This document shows, one piece after another, positions 1 through 60,925 of a stretch of 64,000 nt of DNA; position 1 is the first letter of the stretch; every line of letters begins with the position of its first letter. Source of the DNA: Alphaproteobacteria bacterium (GTDB lineage: Bacteria > Pseudomonadota > Alphaproteobacteria > GCA-2731375); contig JASMDX010000049.1 of assembly GCA_030752605.1 (NCBI GenBank), positions 57,726-121,725 of the forward strand, written 5' to 3'. Under the pieces are notes generated by a model. The model saw nothing but the letters and a program-made list of their open reading frames with translations. It made no database searches and had not been told where the DNA came from. Made by a program: the position numbers and the translations under genes.

Positions 1-103
1 TATACGCAAGATCTTTGAGCCGGTAGCAACCACCCCATAGGAAAAGCCTAGAGCCCGGTTCCACCCCTCGGGCAGGATCGCCCGATAATCAATATCGTTC
101 ATG
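1..103 (-). CDS. Partial CDS (5' end only; gene runs off window start): RidA/YjgF-like protein N-terminus
   Basis: Reverse-strand ATG at 103..101 preceded by a purine-rich RBS (gggaagaggg). It translates to MNDIDYRAILPEGWNRALGFSYGVVATGSKILRI..., which resembles RidA-family N-termini. The frame stays open to position 1. Confidence 0.35.
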
Positions 104-269
104 ATCTTCCCTCTTCCCTGATCTACAAGTTTTGATAGATAACCCGCCTGATGCTCCTTCACCAGCCTTGATTGAACCCGTCCAGCGCTTATGCTGAACC
201 GATATCCTTAGCAGCCAATCTCATAGCCGCCAATCAAACGAGATCCCATTGTCGCAAACCAGCCAACCC

Positions 270-896
270 ATGATCAACGCCACGCCCGTGGTGCTTGCCC
301 TGATCGCCGTTAACGTTGCCGTCCACGCAATACGCCTGCTATTACCCGCGCAATGGTCGGACATCGCCGCCACCTTGGGAGGCTTCTCTGCGCCGTGGTT
401 TGTTGCAACGGTGATGGGGATGCAGCCGGATTACATTATTTTCCAGCTACTCTCGCCCCTAACCTATGCGTTTTTGCATGCGGATCTATTGCATCTGACC
501 ATCAACATGGCCTTTCTGCTGGCCTTTGGCACGGCAATAGAGCGACGTCTGGGGCGGCTGCGTTTTGTCGCCCTTTATCTGATTTGCGGTCTGGGTGCCG
601 CTGCCGCCTCCGTCGCATTGTTCTATTACAGTCAGGAGCAGACCATCATCGTTGGTGCCTCAGGCGCCGTCTCGGGCCTGTTCGGGGCGGTTTTGCGCGT
701 AACCACGCGCCGGGCCTGGGCCGCCATCGCCATCTTCATTCTCAGCAACATGATCATCGGCTATACCGGCCTGCCCGGTGCCGGTACCGTCCGGGCGATA
801 GCCTGGGAGGCCCATATCGGCGGCTTCCTGACCGGCTATCTGTTGCTGCCGCTGTTCGACGGCGCGGCGCGGAAACTTGAAAGAAACCTGTCATGA
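270..896 (+). CDS. Rhomboid-family intramembrane serine protease
   Basis: Multi-TM protein with a GASGAVSG (GxSG catalytic Ser) motif and an AHIGGF (catalytic His) motif. The ORF-track start at 249 is a TTG; the first ATG (MINATPV) is at 270. The stop overlaps the next start (ATGA at 893-896). Confidence 0.75.
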   Translation: MINATPVVLALIAVNVAVHAIRLLLPAQWSDIAATLGGFSAPWFVATVMGMQPDYIIFQLLSPLTYAFLHADLLHLTINMAFLLAFGTAIERRLGRLRFVALYLICGLGAAAASVALFYYSQEQTIIVGASGAVSGLFGAVLRVTTRRAWAAIAIFILSNMIIGYTGLPGAGTVRAIAWEAHIGGFLTGYLLLPLFDGAARKLERNLS

Positions 897-1981
897 AAAT
901 AACGGGACTACGCACCGAAGCGGTCCGGATTCCATTCGAAACACCGATCCGCACCGCGATTCACCATGTCGAGGCCGTCTGCTGCGTCCTGTTGCGGGTG
1001 GATACGGACGAAGGAATTGAGGGTCAAGGCCTGGTCTGGTGCATGAACGCCGCGCGTCTGCCCGTGCTCGACGCCGTGATCCACAGCCTTCGCCCCAGGG
1101 TCGTTGGCTGTGATCCGCATGAACATGCCGCCCTGTGGTCGGAAATGTGGGCCGACGTCAATTTCTTTGGCGCCAAGGGCATCAGCCTGTTCGGTATCGC
1201 CGCCATCGACATGGCGCTGTGGGATCTGGTGGGCAAAGCCCACGATATGTCCGTTTGCCATTTACTAGGGCAAAGCCGGGACCGGGTGCGGGCCTATCAT
1301 TCGGGCGGCCTTTGGGTCTCGCTCACCCCGGACGAATTACAGGCCCAGGCCAAGGATTATCTGAGCCAGGGTTATCGCGCCATGAAGATGCGCCTGGGCA
1401 AATCGTCCGTGACGGAAGATATCGAACGGGTGGCCGCCGTGCGCGAGGCGATCGGACCCGATATCGACCTGATGGCCGACGCAAACCAGGGCTTCAGCGT
1501 TAATCACGCCATCCGCATGGGCCGGGCGTTGGAGCCGTACAATCTGGTCTGGTACGAAGAACCGGTGCAGGCCCATGACCTGGCCGGTTCGGCCCGGGTC
1601 GCGGCGGAGATCGACACACCCATTGCCAGCGGCGAGACCGAATATGCCCGCTATGGCTTCCGCGACATGATCGAGCGGGGCTCGGCCGATGTGCTGATGC
1701 CAGATCTGGAACGGGTCGGCGGCATCACGGAATTCGTCAAAGTGGCACATATGGCGGATGCCTTTGATATTCCCGTCTCGCCCCATGTCTATACCGAACA
1801 AAGCCTGCAGCTCTGCGGTGCCTTGAACAATATCGAATACAGCGAGATGATGCCCTGGTTCGCGCCGCTCTATAACGAGGCGACCGAGCTGGAGGACGGC
1901 GATTTGTTGATCCCCGACCGGCCGGGCCTGGGCTTCACATTCAATGCGGACGCCATCGCGCGATACCACGTGCCGAGCTAA
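893..1981 (+). CDS. Enolase-superfamily enzyme (mandelate racemase/muconate lactonizing enzyme family)
   Basis: KxK motif (AMKMRLGK) and metal-ligand pattern D(LMADAN)...E(YEEP)...E(ASGETE) on a TIM-barrel. 362 aa. Start overlaps the rhomboid stop. Confidence 0.85.
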   Translation: MKITGLRTEAVRIPFETPIRTAIHHVEAVCCVLLRVDTDEGIEGQGLVWCMNAARLPVLDAVIHSLRPRVVGCDPHEHAALWSEMWADVNFFGAKGISLFGIAAIDMALWDLVGKAHDMSVCHLLGQSRDRVRAYHSGGLWVSLTPDELQAQAKDYLSQGYRAMKMRLGKSSVTEDIERVAAVREAIGPDIDLMADANQGFSVNHAIRMGRALEPYNLVWYEEPVQAHDLAGSARVAAEIDTPIASGETEYARYGFRDMIERGSADVLMPDLERVGGITEFVKVAHMADAFDIPVSPHVYTEQSLQLCGALNNIEYSEMMPWFAPLYNEATELEDGDLLIPDRPGLGFTFNADAIARYHVPS

Positions 1982-2022
1982 TTGGCGCGTTACCGCGTCA
2001 CTGATTGAGAGGAGTATGGCCA

Positions 2023-3126
2023 ATGAAAATCGGTAAAGTGGATACGACTATTGTGAAACTGCCTTACAGCACCGGCGGGAGAGGTAATATCGGCAATATG
2101 GATTGGTCCATGCTGGACTATGTCCTGATCCGCATAGAGACCGAAGACGGCATGGTCGGTTGGGGCGATGCCTTTGGCTATGGCGGCATCGCACCTGCCG
2201 TCAAGGCGATGGTGGATCACAGGATCGCCCCCTCGCTGATCGGCAAGAATGCCTCGGCCGTCACGCAACTGTCTTATTTCCTGCAACAGGGCAACCACCT
2301 TCTTGGACGTTATGGCGTTACGATGTTCGCCATTTCCGGGATCGATATCGCGCTTTGGGATCTGGCGGGCAAGGCCGCGGGCGTGCCGGTTTCGACCTTA
2401 TTGGGTGGGGCCCGGCGGACGGAAATTCCCGCCTATGCCTCCCTGTTCAACTACACCGACCCCGATCAGGTCGCCGAACATTGCCAGCGCGCCATGAGTG
2501 AAGGCTACGGATCCGTCAAACTGCATGAAACCACCGAGCCAGCGGTCCGCGCCGCCCGCCTGGCCATGGGCGACGGCGTGCCCTTGATGGTCGATACCAA
2601 CTGCCCTTGGACACCGTGGCAGGCCAAGGAAGCGGCCCTGTCGTTCAAACCTTACGATCTGCATTGGCTGGAAGAGCCGATCTTCCCGCCCGAGGATTTT
2701 AACAGCCTCAATCGCCTTGGCATAGAGGTGGATATTCCCCTGGCGGCGGGCGAAAACGCCTGCACCGCGTTCGAATTTAAGCAGATGATCGAGGCGGAGG
2801 CGGTGACCTACGTCCAACCCAGCGTCACCAAGGTTGGCGGCATAACGGAATTCCGCAAGATCATCACCCTGGGCGAGCTGGGCGGTACCACGGTGATGCC
2901 CCATGCCCCCTATTTCGCGCCGGGACTGTTGGCCACCTTGCAGCTGCTGGCAACCATGCCCGACGAATGCCTGGCCGAGACCTTCTACTTCAAGACTCTA
3001 GAAGCGAGCCTATACGGCGACGCCATCGTGGCTAAGGACGGCAACATCACAGTGCCGACGGGTCCAGGCCTAGGTTTGGATCCCAATTTGGACGTGATCA
3101 AGGATTATGCGGTGAAGGATGGTTAG
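2023..3126 (+). CDS. Enolase-superfamily enzyme (MR/MLE family), second tandem paralogue
   Basis: GAGGAG RBS 8 nt upstream of ATG 2023 (the ORF-track start at 2005 is a TTG). Motifs VKLHE, VDTNCPW, LEEPI and AAGENA fit the enolase-superfamily barrel. About 367 aa. Confidence 0.85.
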   Translation: MKIGKVDTTIVKLPYSTGGRGNIGNMDWSMLDYVLIRIETEDGMVGWGDAFGYGGIAPAVKAMVDHRIAPSLIGKNASAVTQLSYFLQQGNHLLGRYGVTMFAISGIDIALWDLAGKAAGVPVSTLLGGARRTEIPAYASLFNYTDPDQVAEHCQRAMSEGYGSVKLHETTEPAVRAARLAMGDGVPLMVDTNCPWTPWQAKEAALSFKPYDLHWLEEPIFPPEDFNSLNRLGIEVDIPLAAGENACTAFEFKQMIEAEAVTYVQPSVTKVGGITEFRKIITLGELGGTTVMPHAPYFAPGLLATLQLLATMPDECLAETFYFKTLEASLYGDAIVAKDGNITVPTGPGLGLDPNLDVIKDYAVKDG

Positions 3127-3360
3127 CTATAAAATCGGAACAGGGCATTTATGCGGTACTCACTCATGACGTCTCACCAATGACCTGCGGCGCCGCATCT
3201 GGGCGCCTGTTAGCGGACCTGATGGAAGGATACGATAGTGTTCTACTGAGTGCCATCCTAGACATTCCGCAAGCTCGGCGTTTGCCATCGCGTCCGTTTC
3301 ACGATTTAAGCGCGCAGGAAGAGGATTGGTATGAAGAGAAAAGCCGCCTCAACGCCTTTT

Positions 3361-3722
3361 TCAGCACCAATGTTTGAAACGATCCTGTGCAGGTTGAACA
3401 CCGATACCGTGCTCATAACCCCATGTGTCCTGGCGCAAGCCGCCGTCCTTCAAGAAAGGCCACAGCTTGAAGAAGGCGCCCACATCGTGCTCGTTTCGAA
3501 AACCATGCCGCGTCCAGATGATCGGGATATCCTAGGCGGGGGCGGCGTCGAGCAATTTTATCATTGGCTCGATCACGCGCCGCAATTGGCTGATATCGAT
3601 GTTGCCTTTGCCATACCAGCCGTCGGGATAGAGAAAGTCATTCTGCGCGTCGATCACCACAACCGCCGTCCGGCCCGGCACCAGGTTCCAATGGGCGTTT
3701 CAAACGGATCGATACGCTCCAT
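3361..3722 (-). pseudogene. Disrupted isochorismatase-family (cysteine hydrolase) gene relic
   Basis: Reverse-strand translation gives (M)PGRTAVVVIDAQNDFLYPDGWYGKGNIDISQLRRVIEPMIKLLDAAPA-TAG-DIPIIWTRHGFRNEHDVGAFFKLWPFLKDGGL... It carries the classic isochorismatase N-terminal motif but has an in-frame TAG at 3534..3532. There is also an upstream ATG (3722) in a different frame. The ORF track has no intact ORF here. Confidence 0.5.
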
Positions 3723-3724
3723 GT

Positions 3725-4396
3725 TCAGGTATTCCGCCGCATGTGATCGAGCACCGCTTCAAGCGGTTCCACATCGCCGAACTTGGCGTCCATATCATAC
3801 AGATTCCATTCTACCGCGCCGGCGATGCGGTCGCCGATGCATTCGCGCACGATGATCGGACGGAAGCCATCCGCAATAGCGTCTTCCACCGTGGCGCGAA
3901 CACACGCCGAGGCCGTGGCGCCGGTGACGACCAACGTATCGACGCCACAGGCCGTGAGATAACTCTGCAGATTGGTGCCGCGAAAGGCGGAGGCCTGTTT
4001 CTTGACGATCAGCATTTCGTCGTCCCGACGTTCCAGGCGGGTATCGATTTCCACCGCTTCGGAGCCCGCGCATAGAACCTCGGCGGGGATTTTCCTGCCC
4101 CACAGGCCCATGTCGGAATGCTCACCCTCGATAATTTCATAGGCCGTGGTGGTGAAGATGATCGGCAGACCCTTGGCGCGGAATGCGGCAAGTACCTCGT
4201 TCAGGGCCGGGATCACCGTCTCCATTCCCTCGCAAGTGAAGGCATTGTCTTCCCTGGTCCAGGCATTGGCCATGTCGATCACGACCAGGGCCGCTTTCTT
4301 GCCCCATCCGACGCGCCGTTGGAAGCCGCGCTCCTGATAAAGAGCGCTGTCGTTTGTAAAAAGCTTATTGAGCGCCGCCTTGATTTCCGGATCCAT
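3725..4396 (-). CDS. Isochorismatase-family hydrolase (cysteine hydrolase; N-carbamoylsarcosine amidase-like)
   Basis: ALVVIDMANAW motif and catalytic-Cys region VVTGATASACVRAT. 223 aa. Confidence 0.85.
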   Translation of the reverse strand: MDPEIKAALNKLFTNDSALYQERGFQRRVGWGKKAALVVIDMANAWTREDNAFTCEGMETVIPALNEVLAAFRAKGLPIIFTTTAYEIIEGEHSDMGLWGRKIPAEVLCAGSEAVEIDTRLERRDDEMLIVKKQASAFRGTNLQSYLTACGVDTLVVTGATASACVRATVEDAIADGFRPIIVRECIGDRIAGAVEWNLYDMDAKFGDVEPLEAVLDHMRRNT

Positions 4397-4431
4397 TGCG
4401 TTTTCCTCCCCACCGATGCCATGTTCTTCGC

Positions 4432-4476
4432 TTAGCCTATCATACTCGCCTCTGGATGCGATAACAGGCTAAGCTA
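4432..4476. promoter_or_regulatory. Perfect 9-bp inverted repeat GCTTAGCCT-N27-AGGCTAAGC in divergent promoter region; candidate operator
   Basis: It lies in the 98-nt divergent intergenic region between the isochorismatase-family gene (minus strand) and the ACAD-fold oxidoreductase (plus strand). Each half is additionally flanked by TATCATA / TATGATA. Confidence 0.35.
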
Positions 4477-4494
4477 TGATACGCACAGGCGAGT

Positions 4495-5706
4495 TTGAAA
4501 CGAATGGGCGGGGAAATGACAGCAAGATCAGAGGCGGGTGAGATGCTGGCAGGTTCGGCATTGGAGAACGCCCGCGCGGTGGCACCGGTGCTGCGCGCCG
4601 AGGGGAGCAGGATAGAAGTCGCCCGCGCTCTTACGCCCGAGGCCCTGGCCACTATGCATGAAGGCCAGCTGTTTCGCCTTAGCCTGCCCCGCCGGCACGG
4701 GGGGGCAGAGCTGCCTCTGCCGCAATTGGCGCAAGCGGCCGAGATTATCGGCGGTGCCGATGCCTCCGCCGCCTGGTGCCTGGGCCAGGCCCTGGGCTGC
4801 GCCATGACCGCCGCCTTCATGGATGAGAAACCGGCGCGCGAAGTGTTCGATCCAGCGGACGCGGTACTGGCCTGGGGTGCGGGCATACAAGGCAAGCTCA
4901 CTGTGGCCGAAGGCGGTTATCTGGCATCCGGCACCTGGCGCTTTGCCTCCGGCAGTCACAACGCCACCTGGCTGGGCGGCCATTCAAAGGTTTTCGAGGC
5001 CGATGGCTCTCCCCGCCTGGATAAGAATGGAAAGCAGGCCAACCGCACCGCCCTGTTTCCCCGCGCCCAGGCCGAGATGGCGGACGACTGGCACGTCATG
5101 GGTCTGCGCGGCACCCGTAGCGAGGCCTACACTGTGGAAAATCTGTTCATCCCCGAGGGCCTGACCTCGGATCGCGAAACCGAAGCCGAGCGCCGGGTTG
5201 AGAGCACGTTGTTTCTTTTTCCCACCACCGCCGTCTATGCCTCCTTGTTTTCCTCCGTCGCACTGGGCATCGCGCAAAGCATGTTCGACGATCTAGTGGC
5301 CCTGGCGCGGAAAAAAACACCTCGCGGCGCCCGTAATGCCCTGCGCGACAGCCCGGTGTTCCAGACCAAGCTGGCGGAATTGGAAGCCCAGCTCGGCTCA
5401 CCGAGGGCCTACAAGCACGCAATCTTGAGCGAGATCTGGGAGACGGTAGATGCCACGGGTGAATTGAGCATGGACGACCGGGCCCGCATCCGTCTGTGCA
5501 CAACCTACGCCATCAACCAGGCTACGGCGGTATCCGAGCAGGTCTATCATCTGGCCGGTTCCACCGCAATTTTTGAAAACGAACCGTTCGAGCGGCGCTT
5601 CCGCGATATCCACGCGGTCTCGCAACAGGTCCAGGCCAGACATACCAACTACGAAACCGTAGGTCGCTACATGCTGGGTCATGAAGCCGACACGGTCTTT
5701 ATGTGA
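4495..5706 (+). CDS. Acyl-CoA-dehydrogenase-fold flavin-dependent oxidoreductase/monooxygenase (DszC/SfnB/HpaB-C2-like)
   Basis: The C-terminal region AGSTAIFENEPFERRFRDIHAVSQQ is typical of ACAD-fold type-2 monooxygenases. 403 aa; the start could be 4495, 4504 or 4516. Confidence 0.7.
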   Translation: MKRMGGEMTARSEAGEMLAGSALENARAVAPVLRAEGSRIEVARALTPEALATMHEGQLFRLSLPRRHGGAELPLPQLAQAAEIIGGADASAAWCLGQALGCAMTAAFMDEKPAREVFDPADAVLAWGAGIQGKLTVAEGGYLASGTWRFASGSHNATWLGGHSKVFEADGSPRLDKNGKQANRTALFPRAQAEMADDWHVMGLRGTRSEAYTVENLFIPEGLTSDRETEAERRVESTLFLFPTTAVYASLFSSVALGIAQSMFDDLVALARKKTPRGARNALRDSPVFQTKLAELEAQLGSPRAYKHAILSEIWETVDATGELSMDDRARIRLCTTYAINQATAVSEQVYHLAGSTAIFENEPFERRFRDIHAVSQQVQARHTNYETVGRYMLGHEADTVFM

Positions 5707-6443
5707 TGGGACAGCGTTCGACATACGGCTGGCGCGGCAAGCTCGGCCTGATCGTACCGACCACCAATACCGTGAACGAGGCGGAATGGAACATGGCCGC
5801 GCCCGACGGGGTCTCCATTCACGGCGCCCGTATCGTGCTGCACACCGATGTCACATCTGAGGCGGGCAAGGCGTCATCAAAGGAAGACCTGCGCCAGGCC
5901 GTTAACAGCCTGGCCCCCGCCGGCCTGGATGCCATCGCCTATGGCTGCACCGCCGGCTCGCTTATGACGCCGCGCCATGGATTGGCGGATTTCATGACGG
6001 AAGTCTGTGACCTACCCTGCGTCACCGCCGGAGCTGCAATCGTCGATGCACTGCTTTCGCTGGAGGTAACCAGCGTCTCCGTGGCCACGCCCTATGACAA
6101 GAGTTTGAACAACCATGAAGCCGAGTTCCTGAACAGCCAGGGCATAAGGGTGCGGGCTATAGAGGGCTTGGGCTTTGGCGCCAACGGCCCCCACGAATAT
6201 GCGCTGATGCATAAGGTACCCAGGCGAGACGTGCTTGAGCTGGCACGCAGGGTCGATGATCCCGGCGCCAATGGCCTGTTGATCAGCTGCACCGATCTGC
6301 CGACCTTCGGCATTATCGAGGAGCTGGAGCAGACCTTGGGCAAGGCGGTGGTGACGTCCAGTCAAGCCACCCTGTGGGCCGCCATGTCAGCCGCCGGATT
6401 GAACCCAGCCCTGCCTGGCCTGGGCCGCCTGCTTCGCCAATAA
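5703..6443 (+). CDS. Asp/Glu/hydantoin-racemase-superfamily protein (maleate isomerase / arylmalonate decarboxylase-like)
   Basis: GKLGLIVPTTNTVNE N-terminus and paired Cys-containing motifs (AYGCTAGS, LLISCTDLPT). It overlaps the upstream stop, indicating translational coupling. Confidence 0.7.
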   Translation: MMGQRSTYGWRGKLGLIVPTTNTVNEAEWNMAAPDGVSIHGARIVLHTDVTSEAGKASSKEDLRQAVNSLAPAGLDAIAYGCTAGSLMTPRHGLADFMTEVCDLPCVTAGAAIVDALLSLEVTSVSVATPYDKSLNNHEAEFLNSQGIRVRAIEGLGFGANGPHEYALMHKVPRRDVLELARRVDDPGANGLLISCTDLPTFGIIEELEQTLGKAVVTSSQATLWAAMSAAGLNPALPGLGRLLRQ

Positions 6444-6497
6444 CGGGTCGGTCAAAGTCGGTATCCAACTTGAGCTGGCCCGGACTCTCTGGCAGGG

Positions 6498-8585
6498 TTG
6501 AATTTTTCGATGGAGATATCTATGGTCCGCGATAGCCGTTACGATGTTTTGTTCGAGCCGGTGAAGATCGGTCCGGTAACCGCCCGTAACCGCTTCTACC
6601 AGGTGCCCCACTGCACGGGAATGGGGCGGCATTTCCCCACTTCGTCAGCGGTGATGCGGGGGATCAAGGCGGAAGGCGGCTGGGCCGTCATTTCGACCGA
6701 ACAATGCGATATTCATCCCACCGGCGATGTCCGCACACAAATCCGTCTGTGGGACGAAAAAGACATTCCGACCCATGCCCGGATGACCGAACTTGTACAC
6801 CACCACGGCAGCCTGGCCGCCATCGAGCTTTGTCACCCCGGGCATTATTCGACGAGCTATTATGCCCGCGAAACACCAATTGCGCCCAGCCCGATCCCTG
6901 TCCGCGCCCCCTTCCCTGGACAGGCCAGGGCCATGGACCGCCAGGACATAGCGGATTTTCGAAAATGGCACCGCCGCGCCGCCCTGCTCTCTCGACAGGC
7001 GGGCTTTGATATTGTCTACGTCTATGCCGGGCATGCGATCACCTTGTTGATGTTCTTTCTCTCGCGCCAGTACAACCAGCGCAGCGATGAATATGGCGGC
7101 AGCCTGGAAAACCGGGCCCGGCTATTCCGTGAATGCATCGAGGATGCCCACGACGCCGTCGGTGACATCTGCGCCGTCGCCGTTCGGCTAGCGGTCGATG
7201 AACTGCTTGGTGAACACGGCATGACCGCGGGTGTCGAAGGCCGAGAACTGGTTGAAATGCTAGCTGAACTGCCGGATTTGTGGGATGTGAATATCAGCGC
7301 CTGGCAGAACGATTCGGCGACCTCTCGTTTCGCGCCGGAAGGCTTCCAGGAAGAGTATATCGACTTCGTCAAATCCGTTACCACGAAGCCGGTCGTGGGT
7401 GTTGGCCGGTTCACCTCCCCCGACAGCATGGTATCGCAAATCAAACGCGGCGTGCTTGATTTTATCGGCGCCGCGCGGCCATCTATCGCCGATCCTTTCC
7501 TGCCCAAGAAAATCGAAGAAGGACGCCTGGACGATATTCGCGAATGCATCGGCTGTAACATCTGTGCCGCCTACAACAACGCATCAGTGCCGTTGCGCTG
7601 CACGCAAAACCCAACCCAGGGAGAGGAATGGCGCAAGGGCTGGCACCCGGAGCGGATACCGGCAAAAGATACCAATGACCGCGTCTTGATCGTGGGCGCT
7701 GGCCCGGCGGGGTTGGAGGCCGCGCGTGCGCTGGGACAAAGGGGTTATCAGGTATTTGTGGCCGAGGCGAAAACTGAAATTGGCGGCCGCGTGATCCGGG
7801 AGAGCCGCCTGCCGGGGTTGGCCGTCTGGTCGCGCGTCCTTGATTACCGAGCCACGCAATTGCGGCAAATGGCCAACGTCGAGATCTATCTCGACAGCCC
7901 CATGGGCACGGCGGATGTGCTCGAGACCGATTGCTCGCTGGTTGCCATCGCGACCGGGTCAACTTGGGCTAGGGACGGCATCGGCAGAACGCACCACCAG
8001 CCGGCACCTGGGGCCAAAGGCGCAAACATCTACACCCCCGACGACATCATGGATGGCGTTGAGATTGAGGGACCTGTCGCTATCTACGACGACGATCATT
8101 ACTACATGGGAAGCGTAATCGCGGAACTGCTGCGCCACAGGGACCTAGACGTCACGTTGATCACCCCATCTTCGGTGGTGTCTGAATTCAGCACCTACAC
8201 CCTGGAACAGGAACATATTCAAACGAGGCTTTTGGAGTGGGGGGTACGAATTGTTCAGCAGAAAGAATTGGCGGCGGTCGGCGCCGATGGTCTCGATTTA
8301 ACCTGCGTCTACACCGGCAAGGGGCGACACGTTAAAGCGGCTTCGATTGTTCTCGTGACCTCCAGGGTTCCCAATGACGAGCTGTACCTCTCATTGTCGC
8401 GGGACGAGGCCGCGCTCAAGCAATCAGGCATCAACAGGATAACCCGGATCGGCGATTGTCATGCCCCGTCAATCATTGCCGATGCGGTGTATGCGGGTCA
8501 TAAGTACGCCCGTGACCTGGGCGCGGTGGCGACCGAGGCGATACCGTTCAAACGCGAGTTGATCGAGTTGAGCCCAGATTATTGA
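6498..8585 (+). CDS. NADH:flavin oxidoreductase (OYE TIM barrel) fused to FAD/NAD(P)-binding domain; trimethylamine dehydrogenase / N-methylproline demethylase / 2,4-dienoyl-CoA reductase family
   Basis: OYE-like N-terminus (FEPVKIGPVTARNRFYQVPH), Cys cluster CIGCNICAAY (4Fe-4S) and ADP-binding VLIVGAGPAGLEAA. 695 aa; an alternative start is the ATG at 6522. Confidence 0.85.
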   Translation: MNFSMEISMVRDSRYDVLFEPVKIGPVTARNRFYQVPHCTGMGRHFPTSSAVMRGIKAEGGWAVISTEQCDIHPTGDVRTQIRLWDEKDIPTHARMTELVHHHGSLAAIELCHPGHYSTSYYARETPIAPSPIPVRAPFPGQARAMDRQDIADFRKWHRRAALLSRQAGFDIVYVYAGHAITLLMFFLSRQYNQRSDEYGGSLENRARLFRECIEDAHDAVGDICAVAVRLAVDELLGEHGMTAGVEGRELVEMLAELPDLWDVNISAWQNDSATSRFAPEGFQEEYIDFVKSVTTKPVVGVGRFTSPDSMVSQIKRGVLDFIGAARPSIADPFLPKKIEEGRLDDIRECIGCNICAAYNNASVPLRCTQNPTQGEEWRKGWHPERIPAKDTNDRVLIVGAGPAGLEAARALGQRGYQVFVAEAKTEIGGRVIRESRLPGLAVWSRVLDYRATQLRQMANVEIYLDSPMGTADVLETDCSLVAIATGSTWARDGIGRTHHQPAPGAKGANIYTPDDIMDGVEIEGPVAIYDDDHYYMGSVIAELLRHRDLDVTLITPSSVVSEFSTYTLEQEHIQTRLLEWGVRIVQQKELAAVGADGLDLTCVYTGKGRHVKAASIVLVTSRVPNDELYLSLSRDEAALKQSGINRITRIGDCHAPSIIADAVYAGHKYARDLGAVATEAIPFKRELIELSPDY

Positions 8586-8595: not shown

Positions 8596-9267
8596 CTAAA
8601 ACGGCTTGGTCGAACCAACGAAGGCGATCAGCAGTACCACGCACCACAAGGTCACAGCGGCGCTGCCGGCGTTGATACGGTTTTTCTTCATGCGTTTTTC
8701 ACCTTCGACCGCCTGTTCGCCGCCGGCGCGGACCATCTCGAATATGGGCTCCCACAGATCTGCGGCATGCAAAATCCAGGTGGCGCTCAGAACCATCAAG
8801 CCATACAGCGCTATTTTCAGGGCCAGCCAACCCTCCGGCATCAGATTGCCGGTAGCCAGGGCATAGACCCCCAGCGCCGTCATGGCGGCAGCGACAACAA
8901 ACCAAAGCACCCGATTGATGCGGTTGAGGGCCCATTCCTTGGGCGTGCCAATGGTGAATTTTTCCACCCATAACATGCCCAACCAGGCTAGGCTGAGAAC
9001 CCAGATCAAGACCAGCCAACCACCGGTGATTTGGCTGCCATGCTGCAAGGCAAGGGTAAAGCCGATAGGCAGGATCAACGGCGCGCAGGTGCGTGGCGCC
9101 ATGTCGACCTTGCGCCGAATCGCCCGCACCCGCAGGCGTTCGTCCAGGCTCAAATCGTCACGTGTCAGTTGGCTGTCACAAAAGAACACGCCCAGGTCCG
9201 AGCCCAGCCAATAGCCAAACAATAAGACATGAATGAAGATCAAGACGTCCTGAAAGTCAATATGCAT
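8596..9267 (-). CDS. Hypothetical polytopic membrane protein
   Basis: Several hydrophobic helices (LIFIHVLLFGYWLG, WLVLIWVLSLAWLGMLW, VTLWCVVLLIAFVG). No recognisable catalytic motif. Confidence 0.5.
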   Translation of the reverse strand: MHIDFQDVLIFIHVLLFGYWLGSDLGVFFCDSQLTRDDLSLDERLRVRAIRRKVDMAPRTCAPLILPIGFTLALQHGSQITGGWLVLIWVLSLAWLGMLWVEKFTIGTPKEWALNRINRVLWFVVAAAMTALGVYALATGNLMPEGWLALKIALYGLMVLSATWILHAADLWEPIFEMVRAGGEQAVEGEKRMKKNRINAGSAAVTLWCVVLLIAFVGSTKPF

Positions 9268-12183: not shown

Positions 12184-13320
12184 CTATCCTTCGCTCCGGA
12201 AGTCCCGAATGAAATCCGCGTCCGGTATCGCGCCCAGCCCAGCGCCCGTGGGCAAGGTCATATTTCCGTCCACAATGGCGGGCAGGCCACCGGTCAGCTG
12301 TTCGCGCAGTGGATTTGGATTGGCATCGATCTCCAGCATGCCGCCGCCGCCCGCCGCCGCCAGGCAGTGGCCCGAGGCCAATAGGCCGATGGCACCGGCG
12401 AGGAAATGCGGGCAATAACTTTGTCCGGCCGCGATAATGCGCCGGGCCAGCGGCAGGGTCTTGGTGAAACCGCCCCATTTGCACATATCCGGCTGTACTA
12501 CGGCCAATACCTTGGCCGCGATATAATGATCGAACTGCACATCGCCCAGAAGATTTTCGCCGGCCGCCAGCGGCGCGCCAGGAAGTGCCGCGATACGCCG
12601 CCAACTGTCCAAACCCTGATCGGCCGCGATGGGTTCCTCAATCCAGGTCAGATCGAATTGGGAATATTCGGGCCAGTTGCCGCAGGCGGTCTCCAGATCC
12701 CAGCTTTGATTGACATCGGTCATCAGGCGATACTGGCCGATCAACCGCCGTACGCCAGCAAGGGCGGCAAGATCGGTGTCCCTACCAAAGCCGATCTTGA
12801 CCTTGAAGGCGGTGTAACCTTCCTCTAACTTGCCTTCGACAATGCCTTCAAAGCCGCGCGGATTAAGGCCGGAGGCATAAACCGGAATGGTATCGCCTTG
12901 CCCTCCCAGCAGGCGCCAAAGCGGCTTACCCGCGCGCCGAGCCGCCAGATCCCAGAGCGCGATATCGACACCGGCGATGGCCTGGGCGAAAGCGCCCGGC
13001 TCGCCAGTTTGGATGGTCATGATGTGCGTGGCCTGGGTCATGGCCGCGAAGGCAGCGGCGGGCGTATCCCAGCTCTCCGCCAACGTGATGGGCGCCAGAT
13101 AATCCCGGATCAGATGGGCTCTGTTTTCGGCGCCATGCATGGGAAAATTTCCGAAAACCTCGCCCCAACCGACGGCGCCGTCGCCATCCTCGACCCGGAC
13201 CAGCAGGACGGCGCGTTTGGTCAAGGCGCCGAATGACGTCATCACCTGCGTGTCGATGGGAGCATGCAACAAGACCGGCTCGACCTTGACGATGTTCAGA
13301 TTAGGCAATTCTTTAGACAT
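12184..13320 (-). CDS. Enolase-superfamily enzyme (MR/MLE family), third paralogue
   Basis: FKVKIGFG (KxK motif), LMTDVNQSW, IEEPI and AAGENL. 378 aa. Confidence 0.85.
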   Translation of the reverse strand: MSKELPNLNIVKVEPVLLHAPIDTQVMTSFGALTKRAVLLVRVEDGDGAVGWGEVFGNFPMHGAENRAHLIRDYLAPITLAESWDTPAAAFAAMTQATHIMTIQTGEPGAFAQAIAGVDIALWDLAARRAGKPLWRLLGGQGDTIPVYASGLNPRGFEGIVEGKLEEGYTAFKVKIGFGRDTDLAALAGVRRLIGQYRLMTDVNQSWDLETACGNWPEYSQFDLTWIEEPIAADQGLDSWRRIAALPGAPLAAGENLLGDVQFDHYIAAKVLAVVQPDMCKWGGFTKTLPLARRIIAAGQSYCPHFLAGAIGLLASGHCLAAAGGGGMLEIDANPNPLREQLTGGLPAIVDGNMTLPTGAGLGAIPDADFIRDFRSEG

Positions 13321-13326: not shown

Positions 13327-14568
13327 TTACCCCGCCCCACCCCCGACGATGCCTTCGTCGTGCAATTCGCCAATTTCACCTTCGCTTAAGCTCAGGATAT
13401 CGGCCAAGATCTGGTCCGTATGCTCTCCCAAGGCCGGCGCCGGTTGGACCGCTTCGCGGGGCGCGGCGCCGAAATCAAGGGGAGAACCCGGTGTCAGATA
13501 ACTGCCGATGCCTGGCTGTTCCACCTCCTCGAATACCGGGTTCTGCGTGGAACAGCGCCAATCTTCCTCGAGAGCCTGCGCGACGCTCTGATATGGTCCC
13601 CACGAAACGCCTCCGGCGGTCAGAACCTTGGTCAAATCGCCGAAATCCTGGCCCGCACACCAAGGCTCCAGCAACGCAACTATCTCCGCCGTAGCTAAAA
13701 AGCGGTCGCCTTCCTGGCGCAGATTCAGGCCGCACCGAGCCTCGATCTCAGCCACGCCATCGGCAATGCCGGCAGTTTGCACCAAGGCCGGCCATTGCCG
13801 GCCCGTAATCGCGACAATCATCACCCGGCGGCCATCCCTAGTCACGAAATCCCGCCCAAAAGCGCCATAAAGCTCGTTGCCCGTGGCCGGGCGTTCGTCG
13901 CCGTTAATCTGAGTTTCGCCGATAAAGCCCAAGGTTCCCATGGTGGCAAAGGCCACGTCCGTCAGGGCCAGGGAAATGAACTGCCCCTCGCCCGTCAAAC
14001 GCCGATGCCGGTCGGCAGCCAGGATGCCATTCACCGCCGCCAGGCCCGTGGCTATATCCCAGGCCGGCATGACATGGTTGACCGGGGCCTCCGCGCCCGC
14101 CGGTCCCGTCAAATTGGGAAAGCCGGTAGCGGGATTGACCGTATAGTCGACCTCGGATGATCCATCGCGGTTGCCCTTGATGTTCAGCATGATCAGGTCG
14201 TCGCGCTGGGCCTTTAGGTTGTCATAGGACATCCAGCCGGAGGTAGGGAAATTGGTCAGAAAAAAGCCGTTATTCTCACTTTTATCCATGGGCGCGCAGA
14301 TTAGCTGGGTCAACAACTCGCGGCCTCTGGGATTGCGGATATCCACGGCGAAGGATTTCTTACCCTTGTTCAGGCCGGCCCAATAGAGGCTTTCACCAGT
14401 CCCGGTAACCGGCCAGCGGCGGTAGTCAAGACCACCGCCCAGAGGGTCGAAGCGGATTACCTCGGCGCCCATTTGCGCCAGGGTCATGCCCGCGCTGGGC
14501 GCCGCGATAAAGGCCGAACCTTCAATGACCCGAAGGCCGCGCAAAATACCGTTCATGATAAACTCCAC
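13327..14568 (-). CDS. Family III CoA-transferase (CaiB/BaiF)
   Basis: GLRVIEGSAFIAAPSAGMTLAQMGAEVI N-terminus and overall family-III architecture. The real start may be the ATG at 14556 (MNGILRGL). It lies 6 nt upstream of the enolase gene. Confidence 0.8.
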   Translation of the reverse strand: MEFIMNGILRGLRVIEGSAFIAAPSAGMTLAQMGAEVIRFDPLGGGLDYRRWPVTGTGESLYWAGLNKGKKSFAVDIRNPRGRELLTQLICAPMDKSENNGFFLTNFPTSGWMSYDNLKAQRDDLIMLNIKGNRDGSSEVDYTVNPATGFPNLTGPAGAEAPVNHVMPAWDIATGLAAVNGILAADRHRRLTGEGQFISLALTDVAFATMGTLGFIGETQINGDERPATGNELYGAFGRDFVTRDGRRVMIVAITGRQWPALVQTAGIADGVAEIEARCGLNLRQEGDRFLATAEIVALLEPWCAGQDFGDLTKVLTAGGVSWGPYQSVAQALEEDWRCSTQNPVFEEVEQPGIGSYLTPGSPLDFGAAPREAVQPAPALGEHTDQILADILSLSEGEIGELHDEGIVGGGAG

Positions 14569-17823: not shown

Positions 17824-19629
17824 ATGGCGTCCCGACCAGGTGCGGTCGTGAGCCTGCAGCGTCTGTTACTGTTGGCAGTAGTCCCAGCCCTGATGTTGGT
17901 TGGCGTACATATTTTATTGCAATTTTTGGCCGATTGGTTCGCACTTGATGGGCGCTTTATCGGCCCAGATGCCTATATGCGGGTGCTCCGCGTGGGGGAT
18001 CTTGCTTCGGGCGGGAGCTGGTATGAACCGGTAGCCGAACGTTCCAACGCACCCTATGGCGAAATTCTGCACTGGACCCGGCCACTAGACCTGTTGTTGT
18101 TGCTGGGTGGTATCCTGGGCGCGCCTTTACTGGGCTTCGATGGCGCCCTATTCGCCTGGGCGACTGTGTTCGGCCCGGTGCTTCATATTTTCACCCTCGT
18201 CGTGCTGCTGTGGGCCTGCCATCCGCTGTTGAATCAAAAAGGTCTGATGCTGCTAGGCCTGTTGTTCACAGTACAGTTTTTTGTCAGTTTTCAGTTTGCG
18301 GTGGGACGACCGGATCATCATGGGCTTAATATTCTATTTTTCATCTGGCAAATGGGCTTTGCCTTCCGTCTCTCGGCCGTAAAATGCCTGAAAAATTTAC
18401 CTCTTTTTGCAGCCCTGCCGGCCGCGCTCGCGCTCTGGATTAGTATTGAGGGCGCGGTGGGCACGGCCATGATCTTGACAGCGTTGTGCACCGCGTGGAT
18501 CATCCATGGCGGCGTCTATTTGCACCGGATGCGTTTGTTTCTCGTTAGCCTGAGTGTTGGTCTGATACTGGTATTGGTGGCGGAACGGCTGCCTAGTGAT
18601 CTGCTGACGGTAGAGTTCGATCGCCTATCGGTGGTGCATATCGCTTTGTTCGCGATATTGACCTTGGCTGCCCTGTGCATGCCCAGGATGGCGCGTCTGG
18701 GGAACCGTCTAAGCCTCGCGGTCGCCGCCGGCGTTCTGACCCTCACCGTCTTGGGGCTGTGGGTACCGGATTTCTTCTCTGGCCCCATGGCTGCCATGGA
18801 CCCACTCGTCTACGAGATTTGGTTCCGCAATAACGCCGAGGTCAGTCCGACGCTGGAACTCGACGATATGCGCCGAACCGGGCCAAAGGCCCTGGCCCAT
18901 CTCGGCCTGGTCATCTACGCGGTGCCGATACTGGTGGTTCTGTTCTTTCATTATCAAGGCGAACGCCGCCGCAATTATGCAATTTTGTCTGTTTTCCTCC
19001 TCGCTGGAACGGCCCTGGCCCTGCGCGAGGCACGCTGGATGGGCTATCCCCAAATCCTGTGCCTGCCCCCTTGCATTGTGTTGCTGCAGGTTCTGTTCGC
19101 ACGCAATGCCGGCCCCGGTCTGGGACGTACCGCGGTGCGCGTAGGCGCGGTTATCGTGCTTGCCACCGGGCCGTTGATCGGTGGCGGGCTGCTGCGCCAT
19201 GCCATGCCCGTACCGAAACAGGAGAAATCTTGTGGACTTTCAGAGATGGCGCTGTTTCTGGGGGTGAACTATGAACACCGCCCGCAAACATTATTAAACT
19301 TCATCTATTACGGGCCGGAATTGCTCTACCGGACACACCATTTCGTGATCGCCACGCCGTATCACCGCAACACCGACGGCATCGTTGATACCATAAAATT
19401 CCTTCGCTCCACCGACGAGTTAGAGGCAATATCCCTGATTGAGGAACGGCATATCGATCTGGTGTTGATCTGCCCCTCAGATCCGGAGGCTGATAATTAT
19501 CGCCAGACCGGCGATACCCCGACCTTATTCATGCGATTAGAATCTGATCAGCCACCACCCTGGCTCACGATGGTCCCGTTGCCCGCCGAACTGGGCCAGA
19601 AATTCAAATTGTTCCAGACCCAACGGTAG
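17824..19629 (+). CDS. Large polytopic membrane protein, putative GT-C-type glycosyltransferase
   Basis: About 10-12 hydrophobic helices over some 450 aa, followed by a soluble C-terminal domain of about 150 aa. The start is uncertain. The context (GtrA + FAD oxidoreductase) suggests lipid-linked glycan modification. Confidence 0.5.
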   Translation: MASRPGAVVSLQRLLLLAVVPALMLVGVHILLQFLADWFALDGRFIGPDAYMRVLRVGDLASGGSWYEPVAERSNAPYGEILHWTRPLDLLLLLGGILGAPLLGFDGALFAWATVFGPVLHIFTLVVLLWACHPLLNQKGLMLLGLLFTVQFFVSFQFAVGRPDHHGLNILFFIWQMGFAFRLSAVKCLKNLPLFAALPAALALWISIEGAVGTAMILTALCTAWIIHGGVYLHRMRLFLVSLSVGLILVLVAERLPSDLLTVEFDRLSVVHIALFAILTLAALCMPRMARLGNRLSLAVAAGVLTLTVLGLWVPDFFSGPMAAMDPLVYEIWFRNNAEVSPTLELDDMRRTGPKALAHLGLVIYAVPILVVLFFHYQGERRRNYAILSVFLLAGTALALREARWMGYPQILCLPPCIVLLQVLFARNAGPGLGRTAVRVGAVIVLATGPLIGGGLLRHAMPVPKQEKSCGLSEMALFLGVNYEHRPQTLLNFIYYGPELLYRTHHFVIATPYHRNTDGIVDTIKFLRSTDELEAISLIEERHIDLVLICPSDPEADNYRQTGDTPTLFMRLESDQPPPWLTMVPLPAELGQKFKLFQTQR

Positions 19630-23368: not shown

Positions 23369-24838
23369 ATGCCCACTCTAAAACCTAATCCAGATACCGT
23401 TGCGCACCAGAAAAGTCGGTGCGATGACAAGCATCCACAACAGGAAATTCCGTCACTGGACCGTCTGTTGCGCGCGCCTGAATTGCAACAATTGCAAGCA
23501 CGGGCGGGCCGTCAATTGGTGCTGGAGGAGGCCCGCGCCGAGCTGACCCAACTGCGCCAGCGGTTGAGCGGCACCAACGCCAATAGTACAGAAGAGACCA
23601 GCCTGGACCATCTGGCGGCCCAGATTGAGGCCCGCGTGGGGGCGGCTCTACGGATGTCCTTGCGGCCCGTATTCAATCTAACGGGCACCGTTCTGCATAC
23701 CAATCTGGGTCGCGCGCCGCTGGCGGAAGAGGCGATCGAAGCCATGGCAAAGGCAGCGCGTGGTGCCGTCAATGTGGAATTTGACCTCGCCAAAGGCCGG
23801 CGCGGCGACCGGGATGATCATGTGGAGGACTGGCTGTGCCGCCTGACCGGGGCAGAGGCCGCGACCGTGGTCAACAACAACGCAGCTGCCGTCCTGTTGC
23901 TGCTCAACACCCTGGCTAACCGCAGGGAGGTGCCTGTTTCACGCGGCGAATTGATCGAAATTGGCGGCGCCTTTCGAATTCCGAATATTATGCGCCGGGC
24001 GGGTTGCCGCCTGGTCGAAGTTGGCACCACGAACCGCACCCATTTGCGTGATTTCACCGAAGCCCTGACCTCGCGCACCGGCTGTTTGATGAAGGTTCAT
24101 ACCTCAAACTACATCGTGCAGGGCTTCACGGCGGAGGTCAGCGACGAAGATCTCGCCGGCCTGGCTCACGAAAATGACCTGCCCTATATGGTCGATTTAG
24201 GCGCCGGCGCGCTGATCGACATGGCGGCCCTGGGCCTGCCATACGAAACCACGGTCAGCGAAACCCTGGCAAAGGGTGCCGATTTGGTTAGCTTTTCCGG
24301 AGACAAGCTTTTGGGCGGGCCACAGGCCGGCCTAATCGCCGGACGCGCGGATTTGATCGCCAAGATCAAGAAAAACCCCATGAAACGGGCCCTTCGGGTG
24401 GATAAAGTAACCATGGCGGCCCTAGCCGCGACCCTGCGCCTGTATGCCCAACCTGACACCCTGCGGGCCAAACTGCCAACCTTGCGCTTATTGAGCCGGC
24501 CCGTGGCCGAAATCCAGGCCATGGCGGAGCGGATCGCGCCTGCGTTGCGGCTAACCTTGGGCGATGGCTTCCAAGTCACGATCACGCCGAGCAAGGGACA
24601 AATCGGCAGCGGTTCGTTGCCAGTTGAAAGCTTGCAAAGCGTGGCCCTGGCGTTGCGGCCCTGCACCACGAAGGGCAGCGGTGCTGCCTTGAAACGGTTG
24701 GCAGCGGCGTTTCGCACCCTGCCCCGACCGGTCCTGGGCCGGATTACAGATGACGCCTTGCATTTCGATCTTCGCTGCCTGGAGGATGGCGGGGACGAGG
24801 CGGCCTGGTTGGCGCAAATAGCGGATTTAAGGCCATGA
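23369..24838 (+). CDS. selA: L-seryl-tRNA(Sec) selenium transferase (selenocysteine synthase)
   Basis: SelA-specific length and the PLP-lysine motif FSGDKLLGGPQAG. It overlaps selB by 4 nt. Confidence 0.9.
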   Translation: MPTLKPNPDTVAHQKSRCDDKHPQQEIPSLDRLLRAPELQQLQARAGRQLVLEEARAELTQLRQRLSGTNANSTEETSLDHLAAQIEARVGAALRMSLRPVFNLTGTVLHTNLGRAPLAEEAIEAMAKAARGAVNVEFDLAKGRRGDRDDHVEDWLCRLTGAEAATVVNNNAAAVLLLLNTLANRREVPVSRGELIEIGGAFRIPNIMRRAGCRLVEVGTTNRTHLRDFTEALTSRTGCLMKVHTSNYIVQGFTAEVSDEDLAGLAHENDLPYMVDLGAGALIDMAALGLPYETTVSETLAKGADLVSFSGDKLLGGPQAGLIAGRADLIAKIKKNPMKRALRVDKVTMAALAATLRLYAQPDTLRAKLPTLRLLSRPVAEIQAMAERIAPALRLTLGDGFQVTITPSKGQIGSGSLPVESLQSVALALRPCTTKGSGAALKRLAAAFRTLPRPVLGRITDDALHFDLRCLEDGGDEAAWLAQIADLRP

Positions 24839-31973: not shown

Positions 31974-32121
31974 CTTTTCCGCCTCCATCCCCAAAGCCTC
32001 TTTTATGCCCAAGACGGTATCGTGATTTGCCGCGTAAAACAATTACTACCGAAAGAAAACGCGCAATAACGATGCCCAATTGTTAAGCTGGGCGTAGAAA
32101 CAGAAACTCAGGATCGAGCAT

Positions 32122-54415: not shown

Positions 54416-55109
54416 ATGGATCAGCTCAAAATCTCGGTACGCACATTCGCCACGACCGAACCATGGCGGGCGAGGTGCCCGACGGCTGTTTACCCAATTT
54501 TCTGGGCGTGATGACGCAACATGCCTTTGTTACCGACCATGCACCGTCCAACAGTCTATTGGCGGTCGATGTCTAGGCCAAACCGACACCCCCTCCCAAT
54601 TTTAACGATGGTGAAATATTCTTCGAGCAGGCCGCCATTCATAACGCGATCACGGCAGCGTCGGGGCAATTCGTCGCCAATCTGCAGGGCGACATTACAA
54701 CGGAGCAGGTTCTGCTTGACCTACTTATCCATGGCCGTTGCGGCGTGCAGCAGCCTTATACGGTGGAAGGCGGCACACGGGAATTCGATTTTGGTTTCGT
54801 CTCTTCGACGCCCCTACGGGAATTTTTCAACCCTTGACCATGTGGATCTGATGGATGTGGATATCCAAGGTGGGGAGCGCGAGGTCCTGCCCGTAGCAAT
54901 GGATGTGATCAGCCAAAAGGTAAAACGCATTCTTCTCGCCACCCATAGCGCCGATTTGCACCAGGCGATGTGAGATCTATTTTTCGAGCGCGGCTGGATG
55001 TGCGAGGCGGATTACGCCCCGAATTCGCTGCATCAATTACACCGGGGTAGCTTTGAAAACAACGACGACATCCTGGACCTGTTCAATCTTGATCTAGCCG
55101 CCACATAAA
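54416..55109 (+). pseudogene. Degraded FkbM-family methyltransferase-like gene
   Basis: No intact ORF. Three frames give successive fragments: MAGEVPDGCLPNFLGVMTQHAFVTDHAPSNSLLAVDV(TAG); ...TTEQVLLDLLIHGRCGVQQPYTVEGGTREFDFGF...(TGA); FSTLDHVDLMDVDIQGGEREVLPVAMDVISQKVKRILLATHS...(TGA); DLFFERGWMCEADY. The 'DLMDVDIQGGEREVL...ILLATHS' segment resembles the FkbM C-terminal region. Local GC is lower. Confidence 0.4.
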
Positions 55110-58919: not shown

Positions 58920-59112
58920 ATAGTTTCTCCCAGAAATGCCATACAGAATAACAAAGCGTGGATAATACAGCACATTGTCATTGCCGGGGAGTTTTCCATT
59001 CAGCGTCGCCTATGTCGCTGCTGGCCGGGGCCGAGAAATCCGTGATAGCCTTGGCACAATAATTTTCAATTTGTATGCCGCCCGCGGGACGGATAAGGAA
59101 AGGTTTACCGCC

Positions 59113-59925: not shown

Positions 59926-59953
59926 ACAGCGCATAAAAACCTGGGAGTTCGAA

Positions 59954-60883: not shown

Positions 60884-60894
60884 GGCATCCATTT

Positions 60895-60915: not shown

Positions 60916-60925
60916 AGAGCCCCTT

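Follow-up and report, generated by a model that had tools for sequence, protein, structure and literature searches.

The stretch of DNA analysed here, referred to as the window, comprises 64,000 nt of contig JASMDX010000049.1 (positions 57,726 to 121,725, forward strand; assembly GCA_030752605.1) from an Alphaproteobacteria bacterium. Three co-oriented open reading frames (ORFs), at positions 249–3126 of the plus strand, encode a rhomboid protease and two enzymes of the enolase superfamily, ENO1 and ENO2, in that order, an arrangement that we call the trio (Table 1). These gene identities, proposed in an initial annotation made from the sequence alone, are confirmed by Pfam, which detects the rhomboid family (PF01694, MEROPS S54) in the first product with 98.3 bits against a cut-off of 22.6 (E = 6e-28) and the domains MR_MLE_N (PF02746) and MR_MLE_C (PF13378) in the other two (E = 6e-18 and 2.6e-69 for ENO1, E = 2.9e-25 and 7.6e-53 for ENO2). 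The rhomboid gene lies directly upstream of ENO1 in 20 non-identical loci, in which identity descends to 43% for rhomboid and to 59% for ENO1. The suggestion of the initial annotation that this is an unusual operon of MR/MLE-type enzymes is likewise supported, and our full-text literature searches returned no description of an operon joining a rhomboid with mandelate racemase/enolase-superfamily genes. The individual parts are members or variants of known superfamilies; the novelty lies in how strictly one rhomboid clade is associated with two enolase-superfamily families.

The rhomboid and ENO1 genes share four bases, an ATGA in which the stop codon of the first overlaps the start codon of the second, and ENO2 follows after a spacer of 41 nt (1982–2022) that contains a GAGGAG Shine-Dalgarno sequence; both junctions can be read in the sequence as initially described. 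The ENO1 orthologues all start with MKIT or MQIT, in the same register as ATG 893, and ENO1 aligns to its homologues in the Protein Data Bank (PDB) and NCBIfam from residue 1–3; therefore, the objection raised by the initial annotation itself, that the true start might lie further downstream and leave no coupling, fails. The TTG start of rhomboid at 249 is conserved in four other loci (L008, L010, L012 and L013), whereas metagenome gene callers placed the start at ATG 270 instead. Across the 20 trio loci, the rhomboid–ENO1 junction is a 4-nt overlap in 12 and a gap of 12–13 nt in four, with single cases of 24, 41, 75 and 80 nt. A 4-nt overlap by itself is a common operon feature and not statistically unusual; what stands above chance is the conservation of the rhomboid–ENO1 overlap and adjacency, not the overlap as such. 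The three genes thus show the features by which operons are recognised: they share a strand, their spacers are short or negative, and their order is conserved across genomes.

Table 1. Features of the trio locus and of the genes downstream of it, in window coordinates
Feature	Position	Strand	Remarks
Rhomboid gene	249–896	+	TTG start 249, TGA stop 896; 215 aa
ENO1	893–1981	+	ATG start 893, TAA stop 1981; 362 aa
ENO2	2023–3126	+	ATG start 2023, TAG stop 3126; 367 aa
ATGA stop/start overlap, rhomboid/ENO1	893–896	+	Four shared bases; read from sequence
GAGGAG Shine-Dalgarno sequence of ENO2	2009–2014	+	8 nt before ATG 2023; read from sequence
RidA/YjgF-family (Ribonuc_L-PSP) gene, 5′ part	1–102	-	Divergent from rhomboid
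Divergent intergenic region RidA–rhomboid	103–248	.	146 nt; presumed trio promoter region
Isochorismatase-family hydrolase	3725–4396	-	
Acyl-CoA-dehydrogenase-fold flavin monooxygenase	4495–5706		
Amdase/Asp-Glu-racemase-family protein	5703–6443		Weak EutA/arylmalonate decarboxylase matches
OYE-type FMN plus NAD(P) oxidoreductase	6498–8585		

To place the trio among rhomboid loci, we scanned metagenomes with an alignment of the rhomboid, which yielded 80 loci, and ran hidden Markov model searches on the six-frame ORFs of these loci. In a tree, built like the others here by simple neighbour-joining and without support values, the trio rhomboids form a single clade of 21 leaves, which comprises uncultured marine Rhodospirillaceae-like metagenome-assembled genomes (MAGs) and some soil relatives, all Alphaproteobacteria; the trio genomes are almost all uncultured MAGs. 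ENO1 follows immediately in every trio-type rhomboid locus bar a genome with a 6.4-kb insertion, whereas an enolase-superfamily ORF was found in none of the 67 other rhomboid loci, 46 of which carry at least 600 nt of downstream sequence. Counted as ENO1 adjacency, this gives 20/21 clade members versus 0/46 outgroup loci (Fisher p = 4e-16, without correction for phylogeny), a value that overstates independence because the loci are related by descent. The initial annotation had asked whether the adjacency is kept in related genomes, and it is.

The clade contains two apparent exceptions, both of which are explained. The first (L109) is a truncated contig with a rhomboid (P0049) that is 43% identical to that of the window; the 55 residues encoded downstream of it are 100% identical to the ENO1 homologue P0278. 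In the second, two loci (L012 and L094) proved to be the same contig (JGI12316J15309_10000141), on which rhomboid and ENO1–ENO2 lie in the same orientation 6.4 kb apart. The intervening stretch (L012 6683–12620, L094 122–4169) carries genes for an MFS transporter, a TIR_2 protein, an Abi_alpha protein (defence-like) and a cyclase, and it is an insertion into an ancestral trio, all three genes of which are intact.

The genes around the trio are far less constant. Loci with rhomboids at 74, 70, 62 and 58% identity read RidA, on the minus strand, then rhomboid, ENO1 and ENO2, and the flanks of the marine group comprise RidA, Crp and a molybdoenzyme. A 7.3-Mb contig with a rhomboid of 47% identity (L013) has the same trio in wholly different flanks, namely a response regulator and a peptidoglycan-binding protein, while two further loci are flanked by a trypsin-like peptidase (L178) or by a trypsin-like peptidase and an MBL-fold hydrolase (L097). 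The RidA gene, which is cut by the left end of the window and which in the identical contigs L001–L005 is a 137-aa PF01042 gene ending at this position, also adjoins the trio in L006, L008, L010 and L011 and is absent in L013, L097 and L178, so it is kept in the marine subclade only. Since the flanks are swapped between lineages, the trio outlasts its surroundings, a pattern typical of operons under selection. That the adjacency is due to chance, or to annotation artefacts in a genome rich in enolase-superfamily genes, has next to no probability: the four MR_MLE genes of the window do raise the odds of such a neighbour, but the arrangement recurs in 20 non-identical loci that stem from many different samples and assemblers, it is absent from all outgroup loci, and all three genes are under purifying selection (dN/dS 0.06–0.19). 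The synteny refutes this explanation.

A scan that started from the enzymes agrees. Among species-representative genomes, the trio was present wherever ENO1 identity is at least 75% (L014–L016, Alphaproteobacteria/Rhodospirillaceae MAGs), and ENO1 homologues at 49–57% identity were solo. A deep-branching member with an ENO1 of 59% identity (L178) retains the 4-nt rhomboid–ENO1 overlap, followed by ENO2. In the ENO1 tree, all sequences with a known trio context fall into one clade of 125 leaves and all eight known solo genes fall outside it; the context of most leaves of this clade was not examined, including that of a subclade of ~45 leaves with Thalassobaculum sp., whose ENO1 homologue (P0308) is 63% identical. 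A tblastn search of plasmids found no plasmid-borne trio, only solo homologues.

The rhomboid is a minimal core of six transmembrane (TM) helices with no extramembrane or extra domain. Its AlphaFold2 model, computed from 47 homologues, has a pLDDT of 92 and a pTM of 0.88, with helices at residues 13–31, 80–101, 103–128, 138–152, 157–173 and 186–214. In a Foldseek search of the PDB, the 34 best matches to this model are GlpG structures (probability 1.00, TM-score 0.68–0.77); the top GlpG matches reach TM-scores of 0.72–0.77, normalised to the target, at an identity of ~22–24%. A phmmer search of the rhomboid against PDB sequences gave no match, where the fold search succeeded instead. Specifically, TM2 contains H77 and H82-L-T-I-N86 (HxxxN, which supports the oxyanion and the active site), the top of TM4 carries G136-A-S138-G (GxSG with the catalytic Ser; codon 660–662), and TM6 contains A188-H189-I-G-G192...G196 (AHxxGxxxG with the catalytic His; codon 813–815), and residues H77, H82, N86, G136, S138, H189, G192 and G196 are invariant in the 47 homologues, down to 36% identity. 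Because it carries HxxxN, GxSG and AHxxGxxxG, the rhomboid has everything expected of an active protease and no sign of a pseudoprotease. By its residues and fold it is a canonical, catalytically complete GlpG-like protease, with predicted activity.

The trio rhomboid shares with Escherichia coli GlpG the architecture of a 6-TM rhomboid serine protease, the fold and the Ser/His/HxxxN chemistry, but it lacks the N-terminal cytoplasmic domain of GlpG. It may also differ in the L1 loop, where our alignments show no conserved W-R; with H77 taken to be H145 of GlpG, the register of the L1 WR motif presumably falls at L68-S69, and on that register the motif would be absent. The purifying selection on the rhomboid gene (dN/dS 0.10–0.19) shows that it is functional and nothing beyond that. 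Two more specific identities were rejected, since the rhomboid scores 42.2 bits against a cut-off of 84 for rhombosortase (TIGR03902) and 30.9 bits against a cut-off of 250 for the GlpG equivalog (TIGR04239). In NCBIfam, no equivalog cut-off is reached by rhomboid, ENO1 or ENO2.

ENO1 resembles the MR subgroup of the enolase superfamily, and its closest PDB matches belong to the L-talarate/galactarate dehydratase family of that subgroup, from Polaromonas (2og9/3cb3, E = 1.6e-66) and from Salmonella (TalrD, STM3697, 2pp0, E = 1.8e-59). ENO1 has the same Mg ligands at the ends of strands 3, 4 and 5, D196, E222 and E248 (D226, E252 and E278 of 2pp0), and the same His-Asp dyad of strands 7 and 6, D271-H298 (D301 and H328 of 2pp0), all of which are invariant in its orthologues. 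It differs on strand 2, which reads K165-M-R167, where Arg167 aligns with the catalytic Lys197 of 2pp0 and with the second Lys of 2og9. We therefore rejected an identity as L-talarate/galactarate dehydratase (TalrD/GalrD), because the catalytic Lys is replaced by Arg167 and the score on the equivalog model NF047820 (TalGalacDh) is 276 bits, below the cut-off of 500. As judged from its active-site residues, ENO1 probably uses only the His base, the Lys base having been lost, and by the established enolase-superfamily mechanism it is probably a one-base dehydratase of a 2-hydroxy (or similar) carboxylate.

ENO2 is closest to two uncharacterised MR/MLE enzymes, from Polaromonas (3bjs, E = 6.8e-47) and Shewanella (3sjn, E = 7e-43). 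Its Mg ligands D191, E217 and E244 are invariant and align with those of both structures, and H294 is present at strand 7 as in both. The differences lie on strand 2, which reads K166-L-H168 in ENO2, K-L-R in 3bjs and K-F-G in 3sjn, and at the position of the dyad Asp, which is kept in 3bjs and 3sjn (Q-P-D) and is Ser267 in ENO2 (Q-P-S). A single position holds the dyad Asp in the MR subgroup and the second catalytic Lys in the MLE subgroup. ENO2 fits neither subgroup in the strict sense: it lacks both the Lys-x-Lys and the dyad Asp of the former, and the Ser267 that replaces this Asp stands where the strand-6 catalytic Lys of the latter is expected. With His168 and His294 and without the dyad Asp, ENO2 probably carries out a step different from that of ENO1.

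The strand-2 patterns recur throughout the two families. K-x-R is found in 141 of 143 ENO1-family sequences, and K-L-H together with P-S and P-H in 136 of 137 ENO2-family sequences, so that K-x-R with the dyad and K-L-H with Ser are family signatures and not local mutations. The KxK motif that the initial annotation had assigned is therefore wrong for both enzymes. ENO2 is not a close paralogue of ENO1 either: each scores ~770–785 bits on its own family model versus ~160–180 bits on that of the other; in sequence terms these are two distinct families. Tandem close enolase-superfamily paralogues are found in a catabolic operon of E. coli, where gudX and gudD lie beside the transporter gene gudP. 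The trio differs in that ENO1 and ENO2 come from different families and their partner is a protease.

Both families also occur without a rhomboid. Solo ENO1-like genes are present in MAGs of Gammaproteobacteria, Stellaceae and Acidimicrobiales and on plasmids of Sulfitobacter, Pseudomonas and Azospirillum, where their neighbours encode glycine-betaine-type ABC transporters, glyoxylate/hydroxypyruvate reductase A or a CaiB-type CoA-transferase. Two of the plasmid genes, from Sulfitobacter sp. SK012 (L179) and Pseudomonas sp. MPC6 (L181), are solo K-x-R genes at 49–52% identity, flanked by glycine-betaine/proline-betaine-type ABC transporters and the reductase; these contexts hint that the substrate of the broader ENO1 family may be a betaine-like hydroxy acid rather than a classical acid sugar. 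Solo ENO2-like genes adjoin MFS, BKACE, TRAP, IclR and RraA-like genes. Because the solo contexts disagree and the proteins are only 46–59% identical, they leave the substrate unfixed.

The transporters beside the solo genes bear on one explanation of the trio, in which a rhomboid-fold protein has been co-opted to serve the pathway substrate at the membrane, whether as permease, channel or scaffold, and fills the slot that the transporters occupy elsewhere. The solo genes do adjoin ABC, TRAP or MFS transporters, and trio loci are without an adjoining one. However, the Ser-His dyad, HxxxN and GxSG of the rhomboid are invariant and under purifying selection, pointing to retained protease chemistry, and no rhomboid is known as a small-molecule transporter; we regard this explanation as highly improbable.

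The outgroup shows what accompanies related rhomboids. The nearest outgroup rhomboids are those of two metagenome loci (L122 and L128) and a protein of Sinorhizobium meliloti that is 29% identical to the trio rhomboid, and these loci share the order PAS_5 (minus strand), rhomboid, CBS, patatin (minus strand). The PAS, rhomboid and CBS synteny is that described for RhoX (BAB1_1275) of Brucella abortus, which has been shown to be an active protease (PMC8778405). The RhoX-type arrangement resembles the trio in that the gene after a short alphaproteobacterial rhomboid encodes a cytosolic protein that binds ligands, but it differs in that the downstream gene encodes a CBS pair and not ENO1–ENO2, a PAS_5 gene lies upstream, and no enolase-superfamily gene is found in cis (0/46).

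A published proteome comparison of Brucella wild type and ΔrhoX touches on MR/MLE enzymes (PMC8778405). In tryptic soy broth (TSB), in both the membrane and the cytoplasmic fraction, proteins encoded by BAB1_0236–0248 are higher in the wild type than in ΔrhoX, and several are also higher in the wild type in RPMI (PMC8778405 Table 2 and supplementary table). This acid-sugar locus encodes amidohydrolase 2, a solute-binding protein, an ABC ATPase, the MR/MLE enzyme BAB1_0242, an oxidoreductase, an SDR, a FAH-family hydrolase and L-fuconate dehydratase (BAB1_0248), and the authors do not discuss it as a cluster (PMC8778405). We note that six of the ten proteins changed in both media come from BAB1_0238–0248, which includes two MR/MLE enzymes (PMC8778405). 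By analogy, the ΔrhoX effect offers a hint, as circumstantial support, of a physiological link between a rhomboid and MR/MLE enzymes. The effect on the locus may be indirect, because denitrification proteins change as well.

The reading that we favour, with a probability of about 0.45, is that rhomboid–ENO1–ENO2 is a selected three-gene operon with a physiological link between the protease and the enzymes. One promoter in the 146-nt RidA–rhomboid spacer, which we presume to be the promoter region from the gene arrangement only, would drive all three genes, and the ATGA overlap would couple ENO1 translation to rhomboid translation. No match to the sigma-70 consensus was found in 103–248 and no Rfam match there or elsewhere in positions 1–4600; a promoter and terminator scan of the same 4600 nt gave nothing of note, with no promoter or terminator consensus between the trio genes. 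ENO1, its His298-Asp271 base intact and its Lys base lost, would dehydrate the carboxylate by one-base chemistry, and ENO2 would perform a different, adjacent step on the same metabolite, for example epimerisation, cycloisomerisation or a second dehydration. The rhomboid would cleave a membrane protein encoded outside the operon, in a manner physiologically tied to the pathway, for example as regulation or quality control of a component for uptake or sensing, and the protease would be made whenever the two enzymes are made.

Several observations weigh against this proposal. No mechanism joins a membrane protease to soluble enolase-superfamily enzymes, and the lineages examined have no single-pass protein, transporter or regulator in common beside the trio that could be a candidate rhomboid substrate; the neighbours found there are lineage-limited, such as an N-terminally anchored protein of 171 aa that occurs only in L013. 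One genome tolerates 6.4 kb of unrelated genes between rhomboid and ENO1, and both enzyme families function elsewhere without a rhomboid neighbour. The trio loci are phylogenetically related, so that the counts overstate their independence. Finally, the Brucella ΔrhoX effect is pleiotropic, extending to denitrification proteins, it concerns different MR/MLE enzymes, and it comes without a cluster analysis (PMC8778405).

The main rival explanation, somewhat less probable, is that the genes reside together by inheritance. The rhomboid would then be the general RhoX-type rhomboid of the lineage, ENO1–ENO2 would have landed downstream of it in an ancestor, and a shared promoter would keep the arrangement without any biochemical link. 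There is precedent in glpG of E. coli, which lies in the glpEGR operon and has no known role in glycerol metabolism (PMC5442614), and in the mycobacterial rhomboids, which sit in large operons (PMC4467639). The glpEGR operon is like the trio in that a rhomboid gene whose natural role is unclear is embedded among cytoplasmic metabolism-related genes (PMC5442614); it differs in that the partners of GlpG are a rhodanese and a repressor, and those of the trio rhomboid two enolase-superfamily enzymes. The relation of the trio rhomboids to the single conserved rhomboid of Rhizobiales, the solo occurrence of both enzyme families and the genome in which an insertion splits the trio and leaves its three genes intact fit such co-residency as well. 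Against it, a neutral gene order rarely persists once sequences have diverged to 43% identity (rhomboid) and 59% (ENO1) and both flanks have been replaced, clade members with only the rhomboid or only a clade-type ENO1 were not found, and the 4-nt overlap is kept in 12 of the 20 loci.

A more intimate connection can be imagined in which ENO1, perhaps with ENO2, is a cytosolic partner of the rhomboid, an adaptor that senses a metabolite or Mg2+ in trans and gates proteolysis. The parallel is YqgP (GluP) of Bacillus subtilis, which ties rhomboid proteolysis to small-molecule and ion homeostasis: it cleaves MgtE and requires a cytosolic sensing module, the cation-sensing N-terminal domain that acts in cis (PMC7231995). 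YqgP carries its sensing domain on the rhomboid polypeptide itself, and such a role for ENO1 is pure speculation. The trio rhomboid has no extramembrane domain of its own, the tightest link in the operon is the rhomboid–ENO1 ATGA overlap, which favours equimolar co-synthesis, and the gene after the related Rhizobiales rhomboid encodes a small cytosolic ligand-binding protein, the CBS pair. However, the catalytic set of ENO1 is complete save for the Lys-to-Arg exchange, and ENO1 resembles solo homologues in ordinary catabolic clusters; we consider this role unlikely. A shade less likely still is its strongest form, in which the rhomboid and the coupled ENO1 (perhaps also ENO2) would constitute a metabolite-gated intramembrane protease, the enolase-superfamily protein serving as the ligand or Mg2+ sensor that licenses cleavage in trans. 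If this were true, the metabolite-gated logic would extend to the rhomboid–CBS pair of Rhizobiales and would explain the drop of an MR/MLE-containing locus in Brucella ΔrhoX.

Although GlpG is a structural model, the natural substrates and physiological roles of bacterial rhomboids are largely unknown (PMC5442614, PMC12944812, PMC8778405). A rhomboid clade that is almost never parted from two soluble enzymes provides an experimental handle, a single operon of three genes whose catalytic residues are mapped. The clade further delineates two enolase-superfamily families whose active sites depart from the canonical ones, one with K-x-R and the His-Asp dyad and the other with K-L-H and Ser. If the three genes are indeed a selected operon with a physiological link, intramembrane proteolysis would be connected to the catabolism of small carboxylates in abundant marine Alphaproteobacteria.

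Further observations concern the flanks of the trio. Two trio lineages outside the marine group encode, divergently from rhomboid, a trypsin-like serine peptidase that begins with a hydrophobic signal or anchor (L097 4070–5146 and L178 3125–3964, both minus strand) and that takes the slot of the marine RidA. An MBL-fold hydrolase with a BLACT_WH domain directly follows ENO2 in L097 (7889–9811, plus strand), succeeded by a D-2-hydroxyacid dehydrogenase, and the same hydrolase lies ~2 kb downstream of the trio in L013 (11192–12091, plus strand); it may be an extra pathway gene in non-marine lineages. A 203-aa database protein (P0040) joins the first half of the window rhomboid (94% identity over 52%) to an HTH_Crp_2 domain; a chimera with the Crp-family gene nearby, produced by assembly or a frameshift, is the probable explanation, not a real fusion.

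Just downstream of the trio, a catabolic-looking cluster that is conserved in the marine subclade only extends from 3725 to 8585 (Table 1); its pair of isochorismatase-family hydrolase and racemase-fold protein is reminiscent of maleamate amidase and maleate isomerase. A 174-aa ORF at 3331–3855 (plus strand), called in public metagenome annotations, matches no Pfam family, and ~130 nt of it run antisense to the 3′ end of the isochorismatase gene; it is probably a spurious call. The two further MR_MLE genes, which bring the total of the 64-kb window to four, lie at 12184–13320 (minus strand) and 32122–33297 (plus strand), and the former adjoins a CaiB-type CoA-transferase gene (13327–14568), the same pairing as at the solo ENO1-like gene of Azospirillum.

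The window is rich in organic-acid catabolic genes; three AMP-binding (acyl-CoA ligase-type) genes and a hydantoinase/oxoprolinase A-B pair account for 27338–28882, 30279–32042, 35241–36893 and 55083–58999, all on the minus strand. Long ORFs of 223–601 aa without a Pfam match at E ≤ 1e-5 are found at 8596–9267 (minus), 17824–19629 (plus), 59867–60964 (minus), 61145–62740 (minus) and 62743–63651 (minus). The genes selA and selB (23369–26784, plus strand), for selenocysteine synthase and the selenocysteine-specific elongation factor, overlap by 4 nt. Upstream of the window, the same contigs encode a 906-aa molybdopterin oxidoreductase with an Fe-S subunit, and this oxidoreductase is a possible selenoprotein client of selA and selB.

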